DNA from: Capsulimonadales bacterium
Lineage (GTDB): Bacteria; Armatimonadota; Armatimonadia; Armatimonadales; Armatimonadaceae
DNA length: 37,751 bases
Direction: 5' to 3'
NCBI GenBank assembly: GCA_033762295.1
Contig: JANRLW010000011.1
Span: forward strand, 1-37,751
Shown here: piece by piece, positions 6,559 to 13,504 of the stretch
How the letters are laid out: every line of letters begins with the position of its first letter
Position numbering within the stretch: the stretch's first letter is position 1
Position numbers and translations under genes: made by a program
Notes under the pieces: model-generated
The model's database searches: none
Told to the model about the DNA's origin: nothing
The model's input: only the letters and a program-made list of their open reading frames with translations

Positions 6559-7353
6559 CTAGGAACGCGGGGTCATAAAGAACCATTGTTGCGGAGGACG
6601 ATATTCGCCGACCGCCGTTTTTCGTTCTTCCGGGGTCAGAAAGTCGAGGGCGGGCCAGTCCCCGGGATTGCGTTCCCGGCTGGAAAACTCCCGAATATGG
6701 TGCGAACCGTCGAAATTTCGCCGGAGTGTCGACGAGATGGCGGGATCGAGGTGGTCATGAAGTTCGACCAGGAGATCTCCGGTCCGGAACGGCGGAACCC
6801 GGTTCGGGTCCAGAAGGAATGCTTCGCAACCATCGCAGTCGCAGACCGTCAGTGTTTTCCCGCGCAGGACTTCGCTGAGCGTGGCGAAGTCGGCGGCACC
6901 ACGCACTTCCACACGATCGGCGACCCGGTTAAGCGTCGCCATTTCGTTACACAGTCGCCGGGCATGGTCGTCGGTATCGAACGCCACCACCCGGGCACCG
7001 GGAAACCGGCGGGCGAGTCCGACCGCGTAATACCCCTCCGCACAGCCGATATCGACGATGGTGTCGTAGGACTGAGCGAAAATATGGTCAAGAGCGGAGG
7101 CGACTTCGATCTCATAAGACCCCAGAAGTTTGGGAATCAGCACGCTTCCGGTCGATTCGCGAATATAGTCCATTCCCTCGAAGGGGCCACCGATCACCTT
7201 TCGACCATAGCGGGCCGTGAACTTTTCGGTCAACGTCGGTAACCCGAGCGATTCCTCGAAACGTCGGATATGGCGACGACGCCACGCCCGCTGCATGGAT
7301 TGCGCCGGTCCCGGCATCAGCGTCATCAATATTTTCTTGGCGATTTCTTTCAA
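6559..7353 (-). CDS. Class I SAM-dependent methyltransferase
   Basis: Motif I VDIGCAEGYYAVG, acidic motif II VAFDTD, CDCDGCE; TTG start at 7353 behind GGAG is inferred. Confidence 0.75.
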   Translation of the reverse strand: MKEIAKKILMTLMPGPAQSMQRAWRRRHIRRFEESLGLPTLTEKFTARYGRKVIGGPFEGMDYIRESTGSVLIPKLLGSYEIEVASALDHIFAQSYDTIVDIGCAEGYYAVGLARRFPGARVVAFDTDDHARRLCNEMATLNRVADRVEVRGAADFATLSEVLRGKTLTVCDCDGCEAFLLDPNRVPPFRTGDLLVELHDHLDPAISSTLRRNFDGSHHIREFSSRERNPGDWPALDFLTPEERKTAVGEYRPPQQWFFMTPRS

Positions 7354-7496
7354 CGTCGTCTCCGATGGTGGCAGACAATAAGGACAGTTTACCTGAGAGA
7401 AGGAAGGAATCGGCGGGAAGAGAAAAAAGATGGAGGGCAGACAATCTCGCGTAGAAAACGGCAACAGGACCGGAATCGATCGAAAGGAAACGTAGT

Positions 7497-8579
7497 TTGG
7501 GACGGGTTTTCACCGTTATTCGGAACGGCGACGAGCCTTACCGGGGAGCGCCCGACCAAGACCACCCGATGGTTATGGTTATTGACGTCGGCGCCCTGTT
7601 CGGGAAGACCCTGCATAGCCATGACATGGATAACTTTCTCGCGGCGTTGGGCGATGCCAGCGATCTCCTTCGTTCCGATCTCCCTCCCTTCCAATTCCTG
7701 ACCATCGACCTCTCCAACCTGACCTATGTGACACCGTCCGGACTCACCTGGCTACTCGTCGCCCTTCATGCACTCCGAAACCCAAATCGACGGAAGCAAG
7801 AACCCTCTATTGACATACCGACGTCGGAGGGACGGCAGCCTGCCACGAACCCGACCGTTCGAGTCATCCCGCCCGGTCCGCCTCACCAATTACATTACTG
7901 GTTGAAGTGGATGGGGTTCTTCGAATTCGTCGAAGAACATGGCATCGCCTGCGATTGGGAAAAGCCGAAAGTGGCCCTTCCTCCCGACGCGGAGCGGCGA
8001 TTGAAATCGCAGACCGTTCTGGTCCTGACCGAACTGCGTACCGGCGTGGACGTCGCCCGTGTGGTACGCGAGGTCACCGGGAGTGTCGCAACACTTTTGC
8101 AGAACCATCTCGGCTACACCGGATACGACGTAGCGATCCTCGGGATGATGTTATCGGAGGCCTGTCATAATATCCTCGACCACGCCGGTGAAGACGCCTG
8201 CGGTCTGGTCGCGGCGCAGGTCATCCGGCGGAGCAAACAGCTTCCGTATGTTCAGATCGGAGTGGCCGATAACGGAATCGGAATACGATCGAGTCTCAGC
8301 CGTGCCCACCCCGACGCATCGACCTGGCCCCATGAGCAGGCGATCCGTGAGGCGCTCAAACGGGGCGTCAGTGGTGTCCCGGAGGAGGATCGCGGGCTGG
8401 GCCTCTGGAGCATCGTGGACAAAATAACGGACTACCAGGGTACTCTTCATCTGCGATCGGGAGATGCACGGGTGCGGGTCAAGGCCAGGGAGGATGGTTC
8501 CGTGGACTATAACGTCTACCCTTCCCATGCGTCCGTTCCGGGAACGATGCTCTGCCTGACGCTACGCAAGCGAACATAG
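7497..8579 (+). CDS. STAS-like + GHKL (HATPase_c) ATP-binding protein, anti-sigma/Ser-kinase-like
   Basis: N-box SEACHNILDHA, G1 VADNGIGI, G2 DRGLGL, terminal PGT; N-terminal IDLSNLTYVTPSGL resembles STAS; no obvious H-box; start uncertain (TTG 7497 or ATG 7569). Confidence 0.75.
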   Translation: MGRVFTVIRNGDEPYRGAPDQDHPMVMVIDVGALFGKTLHSHDMDNFLAALGDASDLLRSDLPPFQFLTIDLSNLTYVTPSGLTWLLVALHALRNPNRRKQEPSIDIPTSEGRQPATNPTVRVIPPGPPHQLHYWLKWMGFFEFVEEHGIACDWEKPKVALPPDAERRLKSQTVLVLTELRTGVDVARVVREVTGSVATLLQNHLGYTGYDVAILGMMLSEACHNILDHAGEDACGLVAAQVIRRSKQLPYVQIGVADNGIGIRSSLSRAHPDASTWPHEQAIREALKRGVSGVPEEDRGLGLWSIVDKITDYQGTLHLRSGDARVRVKAREDGSVDYNVYPSHASVPGTMLCLTLRKRT

Positions 8580-8602
8580 CCCGCATTTCCGCGTCCTCTT
8601 CC

Positions 8603-8640
8603 TTGACATGATTCCGTCTATCGCTCATACTGAATTCAGT
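8603..8640 (+). promoter_or_regulatory. Sigma70-type promoter with overlapping palindrome
   Basis: TTGACA (8603-8608)-N17-CATACT (8626-8631); palindrome ACTGAATTCAGT (8629-8640) covers the -10/+1 region. Confidence 0.65.
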
Positions 8641-9304
8641 GAAAACGATTGATGCACAAAAAGGTTCGGCGCTGTTCCGGTCCGCCCCCCTTTTGCTGGA
8701 CCGCGACCTGGTGCTGTCCGATGGCCAGCCGCTGGTCAGCGGGTCAACGAGCGATCGCCTGATTCTGGTCGGCAGACGGGAGGGCAAGAGGCTGGCAGCC
8801 ACTCTCACACAGAGGATGGAAGCGCTGCCCAGGCGGAGCGTCCTGCCGATCGATTGTCGCCAGGTACATATCATGGATATATCGTTCGGGGACGATGCCT
8901 TTACCCGTCTGGCCAGAGGACGCAAGGACGATGGTCGGTTCTTCGTACTCGAAAACGTCGGTGAGGAGTTGGAGGCCAATCTCGACACCCTGACGAAAAT
9001 CCGAGGATTTTGTTGCCCATGCTGGCTTTCCGACCGTAACCCGTCCGGCGGAGCCGCGCCGGCAAATTTGCCGACCATCCTGGGAGACCTCGGCCAGGAG
9101 ATGCGAGACACTTACGGGGTCGCATGGCAAAGAGGGAGGATTACCGCCCGCGATTTGATCGAGGAGATGCCGGGAGCGAAACTGACCATCGCCGCAGCGA
9201 GCAATCGCCTGAACCGCTTGGCTGATGAAGGCGTACTCGTCGCACTCGAGGTCGAGGCGATCGAAGGGGGAGGTCGGCAAAAGGTCTACGCCCCGATCGG
9301 TTGA
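8639..9304 (+). CDS. STAS-like (DUF4325-like) + winged helix-turn-helix protein
   Basis: PIDCRQVHIMDISFGDDAF...FVLEN (STAS-like); ITARDL...TIAAASNRLNRLADEGVL...GGGRQKVY (wHTH with wing). Confidence 0.65.
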   Translation: MKTIDAQKGSALFRSAPLLLDRDLVLSDGQPLVSGSTSDRLILVGRREGKRLAATLTQRMEALPRRSVLPIDCRQVHIMDISFGDDAFTRLARGRKDDGRFFVLENVGEELEANLDTLTKIRGFCCPCWLSDRNPSGGAAPANLPTILGDLGQEMRDTYGVAWQRGRITARDLIEEMPGAKLTIAAASNRLNRLADEGVLVALEVEAIEGGGRQKVYAPIG

Positions 9305-9315
9305 ACATCGCATTG

Positions 9316-9348
9316 AAAAAAGGCCGCCGTGAAAGGCGGCTTCACTTT
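9316..9348. terminator. Intrinsic terminator-like hairpin
   Basis: A-run + GCCGCC-GTGAAA-GGCGGC + TTCACTTT directly after the wHTH gene. Confidence 0.5.
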
Positions 9349-9412
9349 CCGTTTCGATTACACCGCAATCAGTGAAAACGCAATAAACGATAAGGCTGAG
9401 AGGAGTTTGGAA

Positions 9413-10606
9413 ATGACGAACGCTTTGCGCCAGACACGACGAAAGACGGAAGCGCCGGTTCGAAACACAATGGATCTCACGACCGGAGGGGATTTTTCGC
9501 ATCCCCTGGACACCGTTCTTGATTGCGCAACCGATGCCCGTGTGCCATTGCTTCTTTGGGGACCGCCCGGGATCGGCAAAAGCGCCCTCGTGACCTCCTG
9601 GGCACGCCGGCGTGGATTGCCCTGCTGGACCGTGATCGCATCGCTCCGGGAGCCCGCCGATTTCGGCGGCCTTCCTTTGATCACCCACGGAGGGGACGGG
9701 GAGGCAAGCGTCACCTTTGCTCCTCCGCGATTCGCGCAGGAGGCCGCCCGTGACGGAGGCGTTATTTTCCTGGATGAACTGACCACCGCCCCACCCGCGG
9801 TTCAGGCGGCACTGCTCCGGGCGGTCGTCGATCGTGCGTTCGGTGATTTGCAAATGGACCCCGATAAGGTGACCATTCTGGCCGCTGCGAATCCGCCCGA
9901 GTATGCGGCGGGTGGCTGGGATCTGGCGGCGCCGCTGGCGAACCGCTTCCTCCACCAGACGTTCCTTCCCGACGCAGGAGAGTGGGTCGAGTCGTTTGCC
10001 GGCTACTGGGGACAGCCTCCCCGGTTATCCTTCAACGGACGGGGCGTGAGCGAGACCGCGTGGGCGGATGCCCGCTCTCTCGTTTCCACCTTCCTGCGCT
10101 CCCGTCCTCGTCTGCTCCTGGCGCTACCGGCGGAGGAGAGCCGTCGGGGTGGAGCCTGGCCGTCTCCCCGCTCGTGGGACTATGCCAGTCGCATCCTTGC
10201 CGGGAACCGGGGGCGGCTTTCCGAGATCCTGCCCCTGTTGAGCGGGTGTGTTGGCGAGGGCGCCGCCGTCGAGTTCTGTCACTGGCTGCGGGAAATGGAC
10301 CTGCCCGATCCCGATGAGCTGCTGGCATCGCCGAAGTCCTATATCCACCCGGATCGGGCCGATCGGGCGTATGCGATCCTCTCCTCGGTCACCCAGCGGG
10401 CGATCAGCACGGGCCTTTCCCCGAAACGATGGGAGGCGGCCTGGACCATCCTGGCCAGCGCGGCGGAAGCCGGTGGCGCGGACGTCGCCGCAGCGGCTGC
10501 CAGGGCGCTGGCCCGGTCCCGGGGAGATCGTGAGGACCTTCCTCTTCCCCGACGCGAACTCATGCCGTTTCTTCCGGTGCTTCGCTCCGCAGGAATCCTG
10601 GGTTAG
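9413..10606 (+). CDS. MoxR-family AAA+ ATPase
   Basis: Walker A GPPGIGKS, Walker B IFLDE, sensor I AAN, Arg finger LANRF, SPRSW; ATG 9413 behind AGGAG. Confidence 0.9.
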   Translation: MTNALRQTRRKTEAPVRNTMDLTTGGDFSHPLDTVLDCATDARVPLLLWGPPGIGKSALVTSWARRRGLPCWTVIASLREPADFGGLPLITHGGDGEASVTFAPPRFAQEAARDGGVIFLDELTTAPPAVQAALLRAVVDRAFGDLQMDPDKVTILAAANPPEYAAGGWDLAAPLANRFLHQTFLPDAGEWVESFAGYWGQPPRLSFNGRGVSETAWADARSLVSTFLRSRPRLLLALPAEESRRGGAWPSPRSWDYASRILAGNRGRLSEILPLLSGCVGEGAAVEFCHWLREMDLPDPDELLASPKSYIHPDRADRAYAILSSVTQRAISTGLSPKRWEAAWTILASAAEAGGADVAAAAARALARSRGDREDLPLPRRELMPFLPVLRSAGILG

Positions 10607-10618
10607 GAGGTCGAGGTT

Positions 10619-11953
10619 ATGGTGACAACGGTTAGTACCTTCACGGCATCGGACGCCCGAGCCACCGTCCCGGCTTCGGAAACCCGTGGCGGGACGCAAT
10701 CTCCTCCTCTGGCCGATACCCGGGTATCTGCGGCGCTCCTGCGTCTCTCGGTCGATCGCCCCTACCTTTCTCATGCCCTTTGGTCGCTCCGTCGTATCCC
10801 GACCACGGCGATCGATACCATGGCGGTCGACGCGGACTGGCGACTCTATTACAATCCGGAACGGGTGATGACGGACTGGAGTACCCGGCAGACCGCTGCC
10901 GTTCTGTATCACGAAATCTGTCATCTTCTCAGGGATCACGCCGGACGCGCACCCGCCGAAGCACAAACGGACCAGTGGACAGCGTACCTGTGGAATGTCG
11001 CCGCGGATGCCGAGATCAACGACGATCTCAGGGCGGAAGGACAGGAACTCCCCGGCAGTCCGATCTTTCCCGATACGATCGGCTGCCGGACGGGCCTTAC
11101 CGCCGAGGAGTATTTCGCGGCGGTAAAAAATGTTACGACGCCTTCGCCGGAATCGATTCCGGAATCGATTCCGGAATCGATTCCGGAATCGGGTGCGGGA
11201 CGGTGCGGTTCCTGCGCCCATGGGCACCGTGAGCGGTATGAAAGCATCGCGGCCTCCGCAGGCGTTGACGGTCTGGGAGAGGGCGAGGACCGGCTCATCC
11301 GTCAAAGCGTCGCCATTGCGATCCGCGAAGCATCCGGCGTTGGCGGGTGGGGCAACATCCCCGGCACCTGGCAGCGTTGGGCCGACGCGGTGCTTCAACC
11401 CCCTGCCGTCGATTGGCGTCGGGAACTGGCGGCGAGTATTCGTCAGTCGCTTGCCGAAACGATCGGCTGTGTGGACTATCGGTATACCCGCCCGGGACGC
11501 CGTCAGGCGGCTCTGCCCCAGTTTGTCGTCCCCCGGCTGGTAGCGCCTGTGCCGCGGGTAGCGGTTACGATCGACACCAGTGGCAGCATGGGTGAAGGGG
11601 ATCTGAACCGGGCCATAATCGAGACCGCAAATCTTTTGAAGGCCAACGGCCTGCGAGAAAGCCTGACGGTACTGGCGGTCGATTCGGCGGTACACGGTTG
11701 TTCATCCGTCTTTTCCGCCCGGCAAATCCGGCCTCTTCTCAAGGGAGGGGGTGGTACCGATATGGGTATGGCGATCGCGGCTGCCGAAGGACTGCGTCCC
11801 TGTCCCGATGTGCTGATCGTGATCACCGACGGACTCACGGGCTGGCCGGACAATCCCCCCAGGGGAATCGGACGGGTGATCATTGTGCTGACCCGTTTTT
11901 GCTCCTGGGCAACCCCTTCCTGGGCCAGGACGATCCGGGTGGATACCCGATAG
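10619..11953 (+). CDS. Metallopeptidase-like + vWA domain protein (DUF2201 family)
   Basis: HEICH (HExxH), WNVAADAEIND, MIDAS DTSGSM, GGGGTDM, VITDG; SD AGGAGG; directly after the MoxR gene. Confidence 0.88.
   Translation: MVTTVSTFTASDARATVPASETRGGTQSPPLADTRVSAALLRLSVDRPYLSHALWSLRRIPTTAIDTMAVDADWRLYYNPERVMTDWSTRQTAAVLYHEICHLLRDHAGRAPAEAQTDQWTAYLWNVAADAEINDDLRAEGQELPGSPIFPDTIGCRTGLTAEEYFAAVKNVTTPSPESIPESIPESIPESGAGRCGSCAHGHRERYESIAASAGVDGLGEGEDRLIRQSVAIAIREASGVGGWGNIPGTWQRWADAVLQPPAVDWRRELAASIRQSLAETIGCVDYRYTRPGRRQAALPQFVVPRLVAPVPRVAVTIDTSGSMGEGDLNRAIIETANLLKANGLRESLTVLAVDSAVHGCSSVFSARQIRPLLKGGGGTDMGMAIAAAEGLRPCPDVLIVITDGLTGWPDNPPRGIGRVIIVLTRFCSWATPSWARTIRVDTR
11147..11191. repeat. In-frame 12-bp tandem repeat (CCGGAATCGATT x3.75), self-complementary
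   Basis: Units at 11147, 11159, 11171 and a partial at 11183; encodes PESI-PESI-PESI-PES. Confidence 0.95.
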
Positions 11954-12016
11954 CCCCCGGCATCGACGGATTCAATCAACGAACCGATTAAACCGAATAA
12001 AGTAAACGCGAATGAG

Positions 12017-13273
12017 GTGATCGTAATGAAGGATGAAATGGAATACGATTTCCAGGTGACCGAAGAAGACCTCGAACTGGCCTTCCTTGCTCTGGCGACC
12101 TTTGTCTGCAGCCGCTGCCGCAAGCCCCTGGACCGCACGGTGCCGAGGCCATCCTATGGACGCTCATGGGATGCCCGTAACGACAAACATATCTGCTGCA
12201 ATACCGCCCACTGCCCTTTCTGCGGCAAGCCGTCCACAGCGAGGTGCCGTCACCTGGTAACCAGGCGAGAGTACGGCAAGTGGTTGCTCCGAGGCGTGTT
12301 TCGCAAATGGGACGGGGTGCCGATTCAGCCATTTGCCGCCTGCCACGGTATTCCGGAGACCCGGACGATCGACTTCGACGACGAGCAGAAGCAGGAGGCG
12401 TTCGGTTCTGCCTTTGACTGGATCGACCGGGTTTACGGTGAAGGCTTTACCGTAAAATCTGACGCCGAGATCCCTCTGGCGCCGATTATCGGCCCGGAGG
12501 GCGTCGGAACGGAGCATAGGATGGAAACAAACGCCGCCGGACGCTTCAACCACTATCACTTTTCGCGGAATCCCGAGTCGGTGCGTGATCGGACCCGGCA
12601 AATGATTATTGACCTGAACGAAGGAGCCAAACGAATGAAATCCCATGTCCCTGCCGCGACACGTTTTCTTCTCCATCAGTTGACGCCTGCAGACGACGAG
12701 AGGGGTATCTCGGCGCTTCAGTTCTCCCCGGACGGGCGTCTGCTACTGATCGGGTTACCGGGCAAGGGGCAACTCTGGGACGTTGAAACGGGGCGTCTCG
12801 TACATAGCCTCGCCGTTCCCCAGAGTAACACGAATAGAAGAGATATCACGGCGTCATTCTCGCCGGACGGTCGACGTGTCTCCGTAACTCCTTCGACCGA
12901 ATGGCCCGGTTACTCCAACCCGTCCGGGCACAAGTGGCTGGACGAGACAAGCGTTTTCGATGTCGCGACCGGGCGCCAAATCGGTAAGGTCGAGGCGATC
13001 AACCTGCCGACGGTCCGAACCGGGATTGTCACGGAAGCGCTACTCGCCGGTGGTTCGGTGATCGCCCGGGCACGGGGCCGATTCATCCATCTGGCCCCGA
13101 TCGATAAAGCAGGACAGCAGGTATTGGGAGGCAAGCGGCCCGTCCGGTTGCCCCACCGGACGGTCCTGCGCCACTGCGCCTTCTCACCGGATGGCCGGAC
13201 CCTGGCGACCATCCAGTCCGACCACGGCAACTACCTGAAGCTTGCATGTCACGTGTTGCTGTGGCGCCTGTAA
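12017..13273 (+). CDS. Hypothetical protein with N-terminal Cys-rich (Zn-finger-like) region and C-terminal WD40-like repeats
   Basis: CSRC, CC..AHCPFC..CRH; three FSPDG blades, LWDVETG, FDVATG; start may be 12017 or 12026. Confidence 0.65.
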   Translation: MIVMKDEMEYDFQVTEEDLELAFLALATFVCSRCRKPLDRTVPRPSYGRSWDARNDKHICCNTAHCPFCGKPSTARCRHLVTRREYGKWLLRGVFRKWDGVPIQPFAACHGIPETRTIDFDDEQKQEAFGSAFDWIDRVYGEGFTVKSDAEIPLAPIIGPEGVGTEHRMETNAAGRFNHYHFSRNPESVRDRTRQMIIDLNEGAKRMKSHVPAATRFLLHQLTPADDERGISALQFSPDGRLLLIGLPGKGQLWDVETGRLVHSLAVPQSNTNRRDITASFSPDGRRVSVTPSTEWPGYSNPSGHKWLDETSVFDVATGRQIGKVEAINLPTVRTGIVTEALLAGGSVIARARGRFIHLAPIDKAGQQVLGGKRPVRLPHRTVLRHCAFSPDGRTLATIQSDHGNYLKLACHVLLWRL

Positions 13274-13420
13274 CGCAAACCGGGGCACCGGAACGCGGAT
13301 CGGTCGTAACCGCCGGGGAGCCCTTGCGCAAGCGGAGAAGGGGCATAGGGGGCAACAACTCTCAAAGATCCTGAGGAGCGAAGAAGGCGATGAGCGGGAT
13401 ATCCTGGAAAGGGGGGGAAA

Positions 13421-13493
13421 CGCACCCGGCGAGGTTCGAACTCACGACCTTCTGCTCCGGAGGCAGACGCTCTATCCACTGAGCTACGGGTGC
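13421..13493 (-). tRNA. tRNA-Arg(CCG), CCA not encoded
   Basis: Minus strand GCACCCG TAGCTCAGTGGATAGAGC GTCTGC-CTCCGGA-GCAGA AGGTC GTGAG TTCGAAC CTCGC CGGGTGC G: full cloverleaf with anticodon CCG. Confidence 0.97.
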
Positions 13494-13504
13494 AGTTAAG
13501 CAAC

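Follow-up and report, generated by a model that had tools for sequence, protein, structure and literature searches.

The kinase-regulator part of the locus resembles CapK/CapS, the 'controller of associated/adjacent pathways' (Chambers, Rani, Min, Villa and Corbett, EMBO J, 2026, PMC13373217; PDB 9Z71-9Z73). CapK is a kinase activated by single-stranded DNA, which arises from nucleotide-excision repair, and CapS is a repressor phosphorylated by CapK; upon DNA damage, the switch turns on neighbouring defence genes. CapS sites have been mapped between capK and capS and also beyond capS. Of the 443 capKS loci in the published census, 348 had an immune operon behind them and 88 lay downstream of R-M systems. 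The cargos also include 57 of the YegP type and roughly 45 listed as 'Unknown' (PMC13373217), and the presence of CapKS is therefore no proof of immunity. GHKL serine kinases acting with a STAS-domain substrate are likewise represented by SpoIIAB/SpoIIAA and RsbW/RsbV.

Three further systems are relevant to the remaining genes. MoxR-vWA beta-propeller ternary systems have been described in phyla that include the planctomycetes (Kaur, Burroughs, Iyer and Aravind, eLife, 2020, PMC7159879). For the phage pair of a MoxR AAA+ ATPase and a metallopeptidase-vWA protein, the accessible text of Iyer et al. (2021, PMC7824862) proposes a role in virion assembly in group 2.2 jumbo phages. According to the accessible part of Blanchard et al. 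(2017, PMC5552922), ddrTUVWX of Deinococcus is a strongly radiation-induced, DdrO-controlled five-gene operon encoding, among others, a SWIM zinc-finger protein and a VWA CoxE-like protein.

Organization and distribution of the five-gene block

Within the window, i.e., the whole stretch of 37,751 nucleotides that was analysed, the block at 7497-13273 comprises five co-oriented genes, here termed g1 to g5 (Table 1). A tRNA-Arg(CCG) gene is located at 13420-13494 on the - strand, which places its 3' end 147 bp from the g5 stop. Open reading frames, Pfam matches and translations confirmed the five-gene block with intact motifs next to a tRNA that the sequence-only reading had described. Both flanks contain housekeeping genes (rpoA, dxs, ValRS), and the direct neighbours encode a methyltransferase, a CMD-family protein and a TetR protein. 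The GC content of the block is unremarkable against the remaining window. PADLOC returned only partial matches for g1 and g3 and has no model for g2, g4 and g5.

Table 1. Coordinates of genes and predicted regulatory elements of the block (window numbering)
Feature	Position	Strand	Open reading frame	Basis
g1, CapK-like STAS-GHKL serine-kinase-type protein (candidate)	7569..8579	+	7497-8579	Pfam, N-box, phrog
Promoter-like site TTGACA-17-CATACT, g1-g2 spacer	8603..8631	+		sigma-70-like match
Operator-like site 1, palindrome ACTGAATTCAGT	8621..8647	.		27-nt repeat D3 and palindrome I6
g2, CapS-like STAS-wHTH repressor candidate	8639..9304	+	8639-9304	family profile, AF2 fold matches
Terminator-like GC hairpin GCCGCC-loop-GGCGGC	9322..9340	.		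both-strand scan
Operator-like site 2, CACCG-caat-CAGTG, upstream of g3	9354..9380	.		second D3 copy
g3, MoxR-type AAA+ ATPase (AAA_5)	9413..10606	+	9329-10606	Pfam, phrog, PDB match
g4, zincin-like metallopeptidase domain fused to vWA domain (DUF2201_N + DUF2201)	10619..11953	+	10619-11953	
g5, Cys/His zinc-binding N-domain (1-215) and partial WD40-like propeller (213-418)	12017..13273	+	12017-13273	

The same five genes occur in the same order in three genera, that of the window included, with unrelated flanks each time. The identical order in two other genera speaks against a chance arrangement and supports the earlier reading as an accessory block, here also seen to be conserved. Of 24 sampled genomes of the family, 3 contain all five genes; another genome (G001) carries a decayed remnant, and in G017 g3-g4 occur with other partners. 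The block appears to be composed of two joined parts, a switch (g1-g2) and a cargo (g3-g5).

The kinase-regulator pair and its putative control sites

The g1 product matches Pfam HATPase_c (9.9e-07), HATPase_c_2 and phrog_3364 (7e-24), and its orthologue in locus L018 also matches Pfam STAS. The translation contains an N-box EACHN (N225), a DxGxG motif (D258) and a GLGL motif, and the N-box Asn, DxGxG and further GHKL residues are invariant in all eight g1 homologues with a g2-like gene directly behind them. In each of these eight pairs (the window and 7 of 42 loci examined), the g2 gene lies directly 3' of an intact g1. The longest g1 reading frame begins with TTG at 7497; translation probably starts at ATG 7569, because this is where homology to the orthologues begins. 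A search of the g1 profile against PDB gave no match. Unlike CapK, g1 has no N-terminal HTH detectable by Pfam and in this respect resembles the VapK-type homologues (PMC13373217).

The sequence of g2 alone has no Pfam match; its family matches DUF4325/STAS_2 and MarR_2. In the AF2 model (pLDDT 89.9), residues ~10-131 adopt a STAS fold that superposes on RsbV (6m36_B, Z 8.8, 92 residues aligned) and TM1442 (1sbo_A, Z 8.9), and residues 148-221 form a winged helix (Z 9-10.6). The profile of the g2 family (41 members) matches the CapS crystal structures over almost the full length (9z72/9z73, 8.1e-13; 9z71, 6.5e-11), as does a profile of the eight kinase-linked members (3e-09 and 4.9e-05). However, phmmer with g2 of the window did not find CapS, and the two are linked at the profile level only, g2 being very distant in sequence. 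S82 of g2 is invariant in 8/8 members; in both HMM alignments the conserved serine is placed one residue later than S54/S58 of CapS (D-x-S-F versus D-S-x-F). Together with the gene order, a STAS-containing GHKL kinase followed immediately by a STAS-wHTH protein, these matches make g1-g2 look like distant members of the CapK/CapS family. In contrast to SpoIIAB/SpoIIAA and RsbW/RsbV, the pair lacks a sigma factor, g2 carries its own DNA-binding domain and the kinase its own STAS domain.

The g1-g2 spacer contains the best sigma-70-like match between 7300 and 13600 (10 of 12 positions), which is positioned to drive g2, possibly from a nearly leaderless mRNA. L014 and L016 keep its TTGACA and TATACT-like boxes, and L013 does so in part. 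Operator-like site 1, which shares nucleotides with both the -10 box and the GTG start codon of g2, is kept in all three of these loci. A terminator-like hairpin directly follows the g2 stop, its GGCGGC arm being invariant in a three-locus alignment, and operator-like site 2 is located between this hairpin and g3, with the core TTACAC-G...AGT-A kept in L013 and L014. Thus, motif, promoter and hairpin are conserved across genera. The two sites are 78% identical, and the motif ACYG-N4-CAGTGAAAAC has exactly two matches in the window, which are also the only two in the 5.16-Mb genome. The two copies lie where CapS sites would be expected, one between the kinase and repressor genes and the other beyond the repressor gene. 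The motif itself differs: CapS recognizes TTAA half-sites at narrow and wide spacing, whereas here yACyG-N4-CAGTG has equal spacing at both sites. The family relationship and the duplicated motif indicate that the pair is most likely an expression controller, as had been suggested.

As in CapK/CapS, such pairs head variable cargo operons. In sampled genomes of the same phylum, related pairs precede Multi_ubiq/CEHH/JAB/E2-E1 genes, i.e., Bub (L039), an HD-S24 gene with a SMODS/DncV-like gene, i.e., a CBASS-like operon (L016), and cyclases with E2-E1 (L019). Immune-type cargo thus follows three of the four other pairs with visible downstream DNA. The L016 pair and its cargo lie directly downstream of BREX PglZ/BrxL. 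This arrangement agrees with the capKS census with regard to immune operons and R-M proximity.

An ATPase, a zincin-vWA protein and a zinc-propeller protein as proposed cargo

The g3 product matches Pfam AAA_5 (8.2e-10) and phrog_1297 (5.5e-52), and its best PDB sequence match is to the midasin AAA domains (6.5e-13). Walker A (GPPGIGKS) and the Walker B DE (D149/E150) are intact. The longest g3 reading frame begins with GTG at 9329, within the conserved hairpin; the start is probably ATG 9413, preceded by GAGGAG 7 nt upstream. g4 matches DUF2201_N and DUF2201/VWA_2 (3.1e-36 and 8e-17) as well as phrog_1314 (7.8e-41); a sequence search found no relative of solved structure. Its zinc motif HEICH...H (H98, E99, H102, H107) and its MIDAS (DTSGS with D319, S321 and S323, in addition to T380 and D404) are invariant in four g4 orthologues.

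MoxR-DUF2201 pairs are common in bacteria and phages, and metagenomic loci and phage records bore out the statement that they are common but uncharacterised. The ATPase gene precedes the vWA gene in 70 of 80 related metagenomic loci, and 9 of the other 10 have no room upstream. g1, g2 and g5 are absent from all 80 of these nearest loci; the downstream sequence spans 1.3 kb or more in 44 of them, and the upstream sequence 2 kb or more in 30. The genes beside the pair are of mixed kinds and, as a rule, not defence-like. The sequence-only reading would have been contradicted if the regulators and the WD40 gene never co-occurred with MoxR-DUF2201: they do so in two further genera, but in none of the 80 metagenomic loci. 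By tblastn, g4 relatives were found in 30 phage records, from N4-like Pseudomonas phages, jumbo PA5oct-type phages and cyanophages. g3-g4 share with the phage pair (DUF2201_N+DUF2201; phrog_1297+phrog_1314) the same core, the MoxR gene directly upstream and intact Walker, HExxH and MIDAS motifs. Unlike the phage pair, they are chromosomal and headed by a CapK/CapS-like switch, and unlike the 80 loci and the inspected phage records, they are accompanied by a regulator and by the rare Zn-ribbon/WD40 gene g5.

g5 has weak Pfam WD40/PD40 matches; in its AF2 model (pLDDT 84.2), residues 213-418 match WD40 propellers (Z 10-12). Within the motif CxxC...CCxxAHCPxCG...CxH, C66, C69, C77 and H79 do not vary, and C60 and C61 hardly do. 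A search of 1.84 billion representatives gave just 19 relatives of the N-domain (E<=1e-3). g5 is the rare and fastest-evolving component of the block, with 43-46% identity between genera versus 72-76% for g3 (to L014 and L013) and 62-76% for ValRS and Dxs.

The sequence-only reading had also pointed to the MoxR-vWA-beta-propeller ternary systems. Both these systems and g3-g5 consist of MoxR, vWA and a propeller-bearing third protein, and in both the third component evolves fast. However, by the defining features compared through Pfam and motifs, g3-g5 do not belong to them. The ternary vWA protein needs a C-terminal propeller, whereas in g4 the vWA domain forms the C-terminus and a zincin occupies the N-terminal part; the MoxR P-loop is often GXXXTAKS, but GPPGIGKS in g3, which scores 23.7 bits with Pfam bpMoxR, below the 27-bit cut-off; and a membrane segment and TPRs are present in the third protein, whereas g5 contains a zinc module but gave no TPR match (PMC7159879). 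ddrTUVWX, as described in the accessible part of its report, likewise combines zinc-finger and vWA proteins and is damage-induced via a dedicated repressor, a likeness by description; its vWA protein is CoxE-like rather than DUF2201, its zinc finger is of the SWIM type and its regulator is IrrE/DdrO (PMC5552922).

In the accessible portion of Dataset EV2 (PMC13373217), MoxR, DUF2201 and Zn/WD40 cargos are not among the cargo names, and the terms MoxR, VWA, AAA, ATPase, peptidase, metallopeptidase, WD40 and Planctomyc have zero occurrences. As far as this portion goes, the ATPase/protease/zinc-propeller module represents an unstudied cargo without earlier report for a CapK/CapS switch.

Proposed function and alternative explanations

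The best explanation, and a reasonably probable one, is by analogy a CapK/CapS-type switch (g1-g2) that controls the cargo operon g3-g5. That g1-g2 regulate g3-g5 appears quite likely in itself. Given such regulation, a role in anti-phage immunity falls somewhat short of an even chance, and a non-immune role in the DNA-damage response is possible but more doubtful. We infer a module that is induced by damage and acts in proteolysis or remodelling, and slightly favour immunity over damage repair as its role. The steps of this model all derive from what has been published on the mechanism of CapK/CapS and from how the locus is built. As long as the cell is unstressed, g2 dimers would occupy the two inverted-repeat copies, one over the promoter of g2 itself and the other between the terminator hairpin and g3, and keep g2 and g3-g5 low. 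g1 would be activated by the single-stranded DNA that damage or phage replication generates and would phosphorylate S82, the conserved serine opening STAS helix 2 of g2. Phosphorylated g2 would leave the DNA, and g3-g5 would be produced. A g3 MoxR hexamer may then use ATP to remodel or release a ligand of the g4 MIDAS, thereby gating the zincin protease domain. Targets might be chosen by g5 through its zinc module and propeller, and the output would be a cleaved or remodelled phage or host protein.

Alternatively, the cargo behind the same switch might be a DNA-damage tolerance or repair module that clears or remodels proteins on damaged DNA. This would agree with the response of CapK to ssDNA from nucleotide-excision repair, with the pairing of zinc-finger and VWA proteins in radiation-induced ddrTUVWX, as far as described in the accessible text, with the position of the nearest MoxR-DUF2201 loci outside obvious defence islands and with the lack of PADLOC matches for g4 and g5. 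However, the ddr vWA protein belongs to another type, and the patchy distribution with unrelated flanks and a decayed copy, the fast evolution of g5 and the Bub, CBASS-like and cyclase cargos of sister pairs agree better with conflict systems than with repair, so that we consider this alternative unlikely.

g3-g4, with or without g5, might also be a chromosomal remnant of phage or mobile-element equipment, e.g., an assembly chaperone with a maturation protease. The phrog matches, the phage relatives of g4, the location of the LUZ7 ATPase and DUF2201 genes (gp37/gp39) beside replication genes and the proposed virion-assembly role would be in line with this. Yet identity to the phage relatives is only 24-27%, the block is not flanked by an integrase, capsid or terminase gene or by an att-like repeat, the tRNA end is not repeated, all five genes are intact with their order kept in three genera, and a host-type regulatory switch heads the block, which makes a remnant very improbable. 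Slightly less probable still is that g1-g2 and the MoxR triad are independent neighbours, the former being a sigma-less partner-switching pair with another target. In another family, 27 of 27 genomes keep STAS-wHTH relatives beside a PRC-barrel gene with no kinase gene adjacent, and the fold therefore has other uses; in addition, MoxR-DUF2201 normally occurs without a g1-g2 pair. Against independence, however, adjacency and order are retained in three genera despite differing flanks, the second motif copy directly before g3 is conserved, and the layout of pair followed by cargo agrees with that published for capKS (PMC13373217).

The five-gene block and its conservation

The five genes of the block (g1 to g5) encode a STAS-GHKL kinase, a STAS-wHTH protein, a MoxR ATPase, a zincin-vWA protein (DUF2201) and a Zn/WD40 protein. 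We infer, for all mechanistic steps, that a CapK/CapS-type DNA-damage switch formed by g1 and g2 probably controls the remaining three genes, a MoxR / zincin-vWA / zinc-ribbon-WD40 operon. The sequence-only reading was confirmed with regard to the ORFs, their order, the position of the tRNA gene and the motifs it had named, all of which were readable. The start of g1 is most likely the ATG at 7569, and that of g3 most likely the ATG at 9413, with a GAGGAG placed 7 nt before it; the GTG at 9329, with which the longest g3 frame begins, falls within a conserved hairpin. The gap between g3 and g4 measures 12 nt.

Features of the block and its immediate surroundings
Feature	Coordinates	Strand	Remarks
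Class-I SAM methyltransferase-like gene	6559-7464	-	divergent upstream of g1; weak Pfam matches only
g1, longest ORF	7497-8579	+	ORF call
Promoter-like site TTGACA-17-CATACT	8603-8631	+	best promoter-like site of the region, 10/12 positions
Operator-like repeat	8621-8647 (site 1) and 9354-9380 (site 2)		27 nt, 78% identity between copies
g2	8639-9304	+	ORF call
GC hairpin	9322-9340		after the g2 stop; motif copy 2 lies between hairpin and g3
g3, longest ORF	9329-10606	+	ORF call
g4	10619-11953	+	ORF call
12-nt tandem repeat inside g4	11147-11194		unit CCGGAATCGATT, about four copies
g5	12017-13273	+	ORF call
tRNA-Arg(CCG)	13420-13494	-	3' end 147 bp from the g5 stop

In GC content (0.565-0.658) the block stays inside the range of the window. 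One flank carries rpoA and dxs followed by the divergent methyltransferase gene, which is not kept beside the block in the two other genomes that have it, and the other flank a CMD-family gene, a TetR gene and ValRS. A repeat search found no att-like or tRNA-derived direct repeat around the block, and none of the five proteins reached a cut-off in NCBIfam.

Among 41 related genomes, strong orthologues of g4 occurred in G020 (66%), G010 (58%) and G017 (48%). All five genes are present in the same order in G020 and G010, where the identities to the window's proteins amount to 54% for g1, 50-51% for g2, 72-76% for g3, 57-63% for g4 and 43-46% for g5, and where the flanks are unrelated both to those of the window and to one another. 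Compared with ValRS (76% in G010 and 62% in G020) and Dxs (75% and 72%), g3 thus evolves at housekeeping pace and g5 much faster. As a unit, the block is kept in a small clade only. PSCyt/PSD1 genes, a possible sign of planctomycete affiliation, occur in relatives. Of the block, G017 has g3 and g4 only (L015:8365-14224, a locus fetched from this genome), and its MoxR gene comprises two overlapping frames and is apparently frameshifted. A decayed copy of the cargo was identified in G001 (L152:9104-10893), in which a frameshifted piece of g3 (residues 20-311) directly adjoins a g5-like piece (134-397), g4 and the zinc module of g5 being deleted.

The putative kinase-repressor pair and its operator-like sites

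Single-stranded DNA (ssDNA) activates CapK, an HTH-STAS-GHKL kinase whose target is a serine on STAS helix 2 of the STAS-wHTH repressor CapS; once phosphorylated, the CapS dimer falls apart, and repression of capS and of the operon behind it is lifted (Chambers et al., EMBO J 2026, PMC13373217). The g1-g2 pair is a distant member of this family. The strongest evidence for the switch is context, as sister pairs in other sampled genomes of the phylum head recognised immune-type operons. A g2-like gene lies directly downstream of the kinase gene, on the same strand, in the window and at seven fetched loci (L013, L014, L016, L018, L019, L039 and L049). At L039, genes for Multi_ubiq+DUF2604, Metal_CEHH, Prok-JAB and Prok-E2_C+ThiF come after the pair and make up a Bub/6E operon, the most frequent cargo among the mostly proteobacterial loci of Chambers et al. 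(PMC13373217). At L016 (3870-12808), BREX PglZ and BrxL directly precede the pair, and an HD-Peptidase_S24 fusion and a SMODS/DncV-like nucleotidyltransferase follow it. At L019 (5049-11043), two cyclases, the first a cNMP-binding adenylate/guanylate cyclase, and a Prok-E2_B-ThiF fusion come after the pair, and at L018 (3299-8896) four co-oriented ORFs (328, 324, 186 and 852 aa) with no Pfam match. In the published set, a known or predicted immune system was found downstream in 348/443 capKS loci, and 88/443 pairs were located downstream of R-M systems (PMC13373217).

Two of these loci have further features of their own: the L016 cluster forms a compact defence island in a relative, and at L019 an rve integrase adjoins genes whose mix of cyclases and E1/E2 components is unusual.

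The kinase g1 matched the Pfam families HATPase_c and HATPase_c_2, and its homologue at L018 matched STAS and HATPase_c_2. Its N-box (EACHN), DxGxG and GLGL motifs are present; N225, H229 and D258xGxG are invariant in 8/8 homologues, with the N-box Asn and the G-boxes kept. The family therefore combines a STAS domain with a GHKL domain carrying the catalytic N-box Asn, which is N218 in CapK. A tryptophan (W85 in SGLTWLL) is kept in 5/8 homologues; the ssDNA-binding aromatic residue is W68 in CapK and F54 in VapK (PMC13373217). Pfam showed no HTH family at the N-terminus of g1, and little sequence precedes the STAS-like motif; CapK homologues of the VapK type also lack the HTH, and deletion of the HTH was without effect (PMC13373217). 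The g1 protein matched phrog_3364 (7e-24), its profile had no relevant match among PDB sequences, and tblastn against plasmids and phages returned one weak plasmid match (a Phaeobacter 'ATP-binding protein', 26%) and one phage GHKL fragment.

For g2, a profile of three orthologues found relatives in 41/401 sampled genomes of the phylum, and all of these loci were fetched. While g2 alone had no Pfam match, the 41 family members matched DUF4325 (STAS-like) in 30 cases, MarR_2 in 29 and STAS_2 in 24. A profile of all 41 matched the CapS structures of V. cholerae and E. roggenkampii (9z71-9z73; PMC13373217) over nearly the full length (8.1e-13 for 9z72/9z73 and 6.5e-11 for 9z71), as did a profile of the eight homologues adjacent to a g1 gene (3e-09 for 9z72 and 4.9e-05 for 9z71). 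At profile level, g2 is accordingly a homologue of 9Z71/9Z72 with an N-terminal STAS domain and a C-terminal winged HTH; phmmer with g2 alone found no CapS match among PDB sequences. In the AF2 model of g2 (pLDDT 89.9), VIA-align comparison matched the STAS domain to RsbV (6m36_B, Z 8.8, 92 residues aligned), TM1442 (1sbo_A, Z 8.9) and a Planctomyces STAS protein (3t6o_A, Z 8.6), and placed a winged helix at residues 148-221 (Z 9-10.6). A Foldseek comparison of the model with the PDB gave weak winged-helix matches (E >= 4e-3), with no CapS among the matches listed. The phospho-acceptor serine of CapS, at the start of STAS helix 2, is S54/S58 (PMC13373217). In g2, S82 (D-x-S-F-x-D-E) is invariant in 8/8 kinase-linked members and Ser is found in 36/41 of the wider family; in HMM alignments it falls one residue after S54/S58 (D-x-S-F versus D-S-x-F).

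In the g1-g2 spacer, the palindrome ACTGAATTCAGT stands directly after the promoter-like site and is followed by the GTG start of g2, so that the g2 mRNA may have almost no leader. The window contains the motif ACYG-N4-CAGTGAAAAC twice without mismatch (0.36 expected by chance; 4/100 shuffles reach two), a count that is no independent test because the pattern was derived from these same two sites. In the whole 5.16-Mb genome only these two matches are exact, two more have one mismatch, and a reversed control pattern has none. Promoter, motif and hairpin are kept in the orthologous spacers of other genera. By ChIP-seq, CapS occupies two positions, its own promoter and the stretch before the cargo (PMC13373217), and the layout here is alike, with candidate sites in the g1-g2 spacer and downstream of g2. 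However, the CapS operator is TTAA-based, whereas the motif here is not and has equal 4-nt spacing in both copies. The pair further appears to differ from CapK/CapS in the conserved serine of g2, which is shifted by one residue, and in g1, on which no N-terminal HTH was seen.

The MoxR-DUF2201 cargo and its possible role

The g3 protein matched Pfam AAA_5 and carries the P-loop GPPGIGKS and a Walker B DE; among solved structures, its sequence matched the AAA ring of midasin best. The g4 protein combines DUF2201_N (3.1e-36) with DUF2201/VWA_2 and has the motifs HEICH...H and a MIDAS of DTSGS, T380 and D404; a search by sequence found no solved relative. These g3 and g4 motifs are invariant in four orthologues. 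With an AAA_5 MoxR gene with intact Walker A/B directly upstream of a DUF2201_N (HExxH) and DUF2201 (MIDAS) gene, g3-g4 is a member of the MoxR + metallopeptidase-vWA pair family. The 12-nt repeat inside g4 encodes (PESI)n in the linker between peptidase and vWA domain; orthologues are without it, so the linker length may vary.

As the sequence-only reading had held, such pairs are common and uncharacterised. Both proteins matched phage families (g3 phrog_1297, 5.5e-52; g4 phrog_1314, 7.8e-41), and tblastn found g4 relatives in 30 phage records at 24-27% identity, among them N4-like Pseudomonas phages, PA5oct-type jumbo phages, cyanophages and Thermus phage phiFa. The genes for an ATPase (gp37) and a DUF2201 protein (gp39, annotated 'HNH endonuclease') stand next to the helicase and polymerase genes in LUZ7. 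The pair was noted in group 2.2 jumbo phages, where a role in virion assembly was proposed (Iyer et al. 2021, PMC7824862); this was a bioinformatic observation, and the available part of the literature contained no functional study of DUF2201.

A metagenome scan with the g4 profile yielded 398 relatives, of which the best 80 were kept. An ATPase precedes the g4 homologue in 70 of these best 80 of 398; of the remaining ten, nine offer no more than 216 nt of upstream sequence and one has RecJ in that position. Neighbours among the best 80 of 398 were DUF1275 (four times), an SF1 helicase, a SNF2 helicase with DUF3232, an AbiEi/DUF559 protein, a STIV_B116-like protein and many ORFs that matched no family. 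No g1, g2 or g5 homologue (E <= 1e-3) occurred in the best 80 of 398 loci; the sequence reaches 1.3 kb or more downstream in 44 of these 80 and 2 kb or more upstream in 30. The supposed association of the kinase, repressor and WD40 genes with MoxR-DUF2201 therefore stood for G020 and G010, and did not extend to these metagenomic loci.

The third cargo protein, g5, had weak WD40/PD40 matches in Pfam. Its AF2 model (pLDDT 84.2) shows a partial WD40-like propeller at residues 213-418, which aligned with seven-bladed propellers over about 170 residues (Z 10-12), and its N-half carries a conserved CxxC...CCxxAHCPxCG...CxH cluster. A search of 1.84 billion representatives with the N-domain (residues 1-215) gave 19 relatives at E <= 1e-3, most of them 370-440 residues in length and of the same architecture; in the ESM Atlas the best score of the N-domain was 0.79, below a meaningful level. 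Beyond the generic WD40 part, g5 was found in six places in 401 genomes of the phylum, namely three full-length genes, a lone paralogue in G010, a fragment in G340 and the G001 remnant (residues 135-402). A scan of 185,579 species genomes returned only two loci already known, and as it rests on two peptide patterns, distant relatives would be missed.

Membership in the MoxR-vWA-beta-propeller ternary systems, to which the block had been likened, was not borne out. In those systems the vWA component strictly has a C-terminal propeller (Kaur et al. 2020, eLife, PMC7159879), whereas the vWA domain of g4 runs to residue 441/444 and its only extra domain is the N-terminal DUF2201_N. Their MoxR often has a GXXXTAKS P-loop (PMC7159879), in contrast to GPPGIGKS in g3, which scored 23.7 bits against PF20030 (bpMoxR), below the 27-bit cut-off. 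The third component there joins a variable N-region with a membrane segment to TPRs and a propeller (PMC7159879); in g5, a distinctive N-region stands beside part of a propeller, and no TPR match was obtained. The vWA architecture, the P-loop and the bpMoxR score rule this identity out.

Provided that the regulatory link holds, anti-phage immunity comes close to an even call as the role of the cargo. It is favoured by the patchy distribution, the unrelated flanks, the decayed copy, the fast-evolving third subunit and the immune cargos of the sister switches, all of which speak against a non-immune DNA-damage response. The latter is, within the same link, a sizeable minority possibility, and unlikely when taken overall. 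It gains from the fact that no defence-database model matched g4 or g5, PADLOC giving only partial matches of g1 to part of the DrmA model and of g3 to RtcR AAA parts, and that the nearest MoxR-DUF2201 pairs stand in non-defence contexts. It also has a precedent in Deinococcus, where the DNA-damage-induced operon ddrTUVWX joins a vWA protein to a zinc-finger protein (Blanchard et al. 2017, PMC5552922). The available part of Dataset EV2 of Chambers et al. (PMC13373217) contains no MoxR, VWA, AAA, ATPase, peptidase, metallopeptidase, WD40 or Planctomyc entry and about 45 rows labelled 'Unknown', and a literature search on CapK, CapS and STAS together gave nothing beyond that paper and its preprint.

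More specifically, and only tentatively, the triad could be an unrecognised DNA-damage-triggered effector. An ssDNA sensor of the CapK/CapS type would switch it on, the rapidly evolving zinc-finger/propeller subunit would aim an ATP-gated metalloprotease, and the protease would destroy a phage or host target, resulting in direct anti-phage proteolysis or abortive infection. If so, this would provide the first functional handle on the MoxR-DUF2201 pairs abundant in bacteria, N4-like and jumbo phages, for which the available literature yielded no experimentally shown function; a copy behind a DNA-damage/ssDNA-sensing switch would make that function directly approachable. On the main reading, a known type of switch, here in a new sequence variant and with a new cargo, is coupled to a known but uncharacterised machine. 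The locus would thereby widen the cargo list and taxonomic reach of CapK/CapS beyond the mostly proteobacterial set, and the variant operator and shifted serine are relevant to the evolution of the switch. Induction by damage may be a wider property of MoxR/vWA/zinc-finger operons, with Deinococcus ddrTUVWX as a possible case, and the locus could help to explain it.

Related genes outside the block

A second, lone g5-like gene is located in G010 (L150:9788-11023); its 412-aa frame matched the g5 N-domain, and no MoxR, DUF2201 or CapK/CapS gene lies within 9 kb. In G017, three paralogous ORFs (374-398 aa) stand in tandem after the DUF2201 gene at L015. As they did not align with the g5 family and had no Pfam match, they were ruled out as relatives of g5; they may represent an alternative third component.

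A STAS-wHTH paralogue (D-Y-S-F-A-D-E) with no adjacent GHKL kinase was present in 27/27 sampled genomes of another family of the phylum (among loci L020-L054; e.g., L023:9482-10117, L026:9383-10273, L036:9372-10178 and L042:9358-10014), with a PRC-barrel gene nearby in the four loci inspected. This CapS-like paralogue seems to belong to the core genome and to receive some other input. The window's own family includes one genus (L044:8778-9437, L046, L048:4932-5624 and L051) whose g2-like gene adjoins LptF/LptG, as seen in L044 and L048. Here, Ala-Val replaces Ser-Phe at the conserved position, which excludes phosphorylation of the protein at this site.
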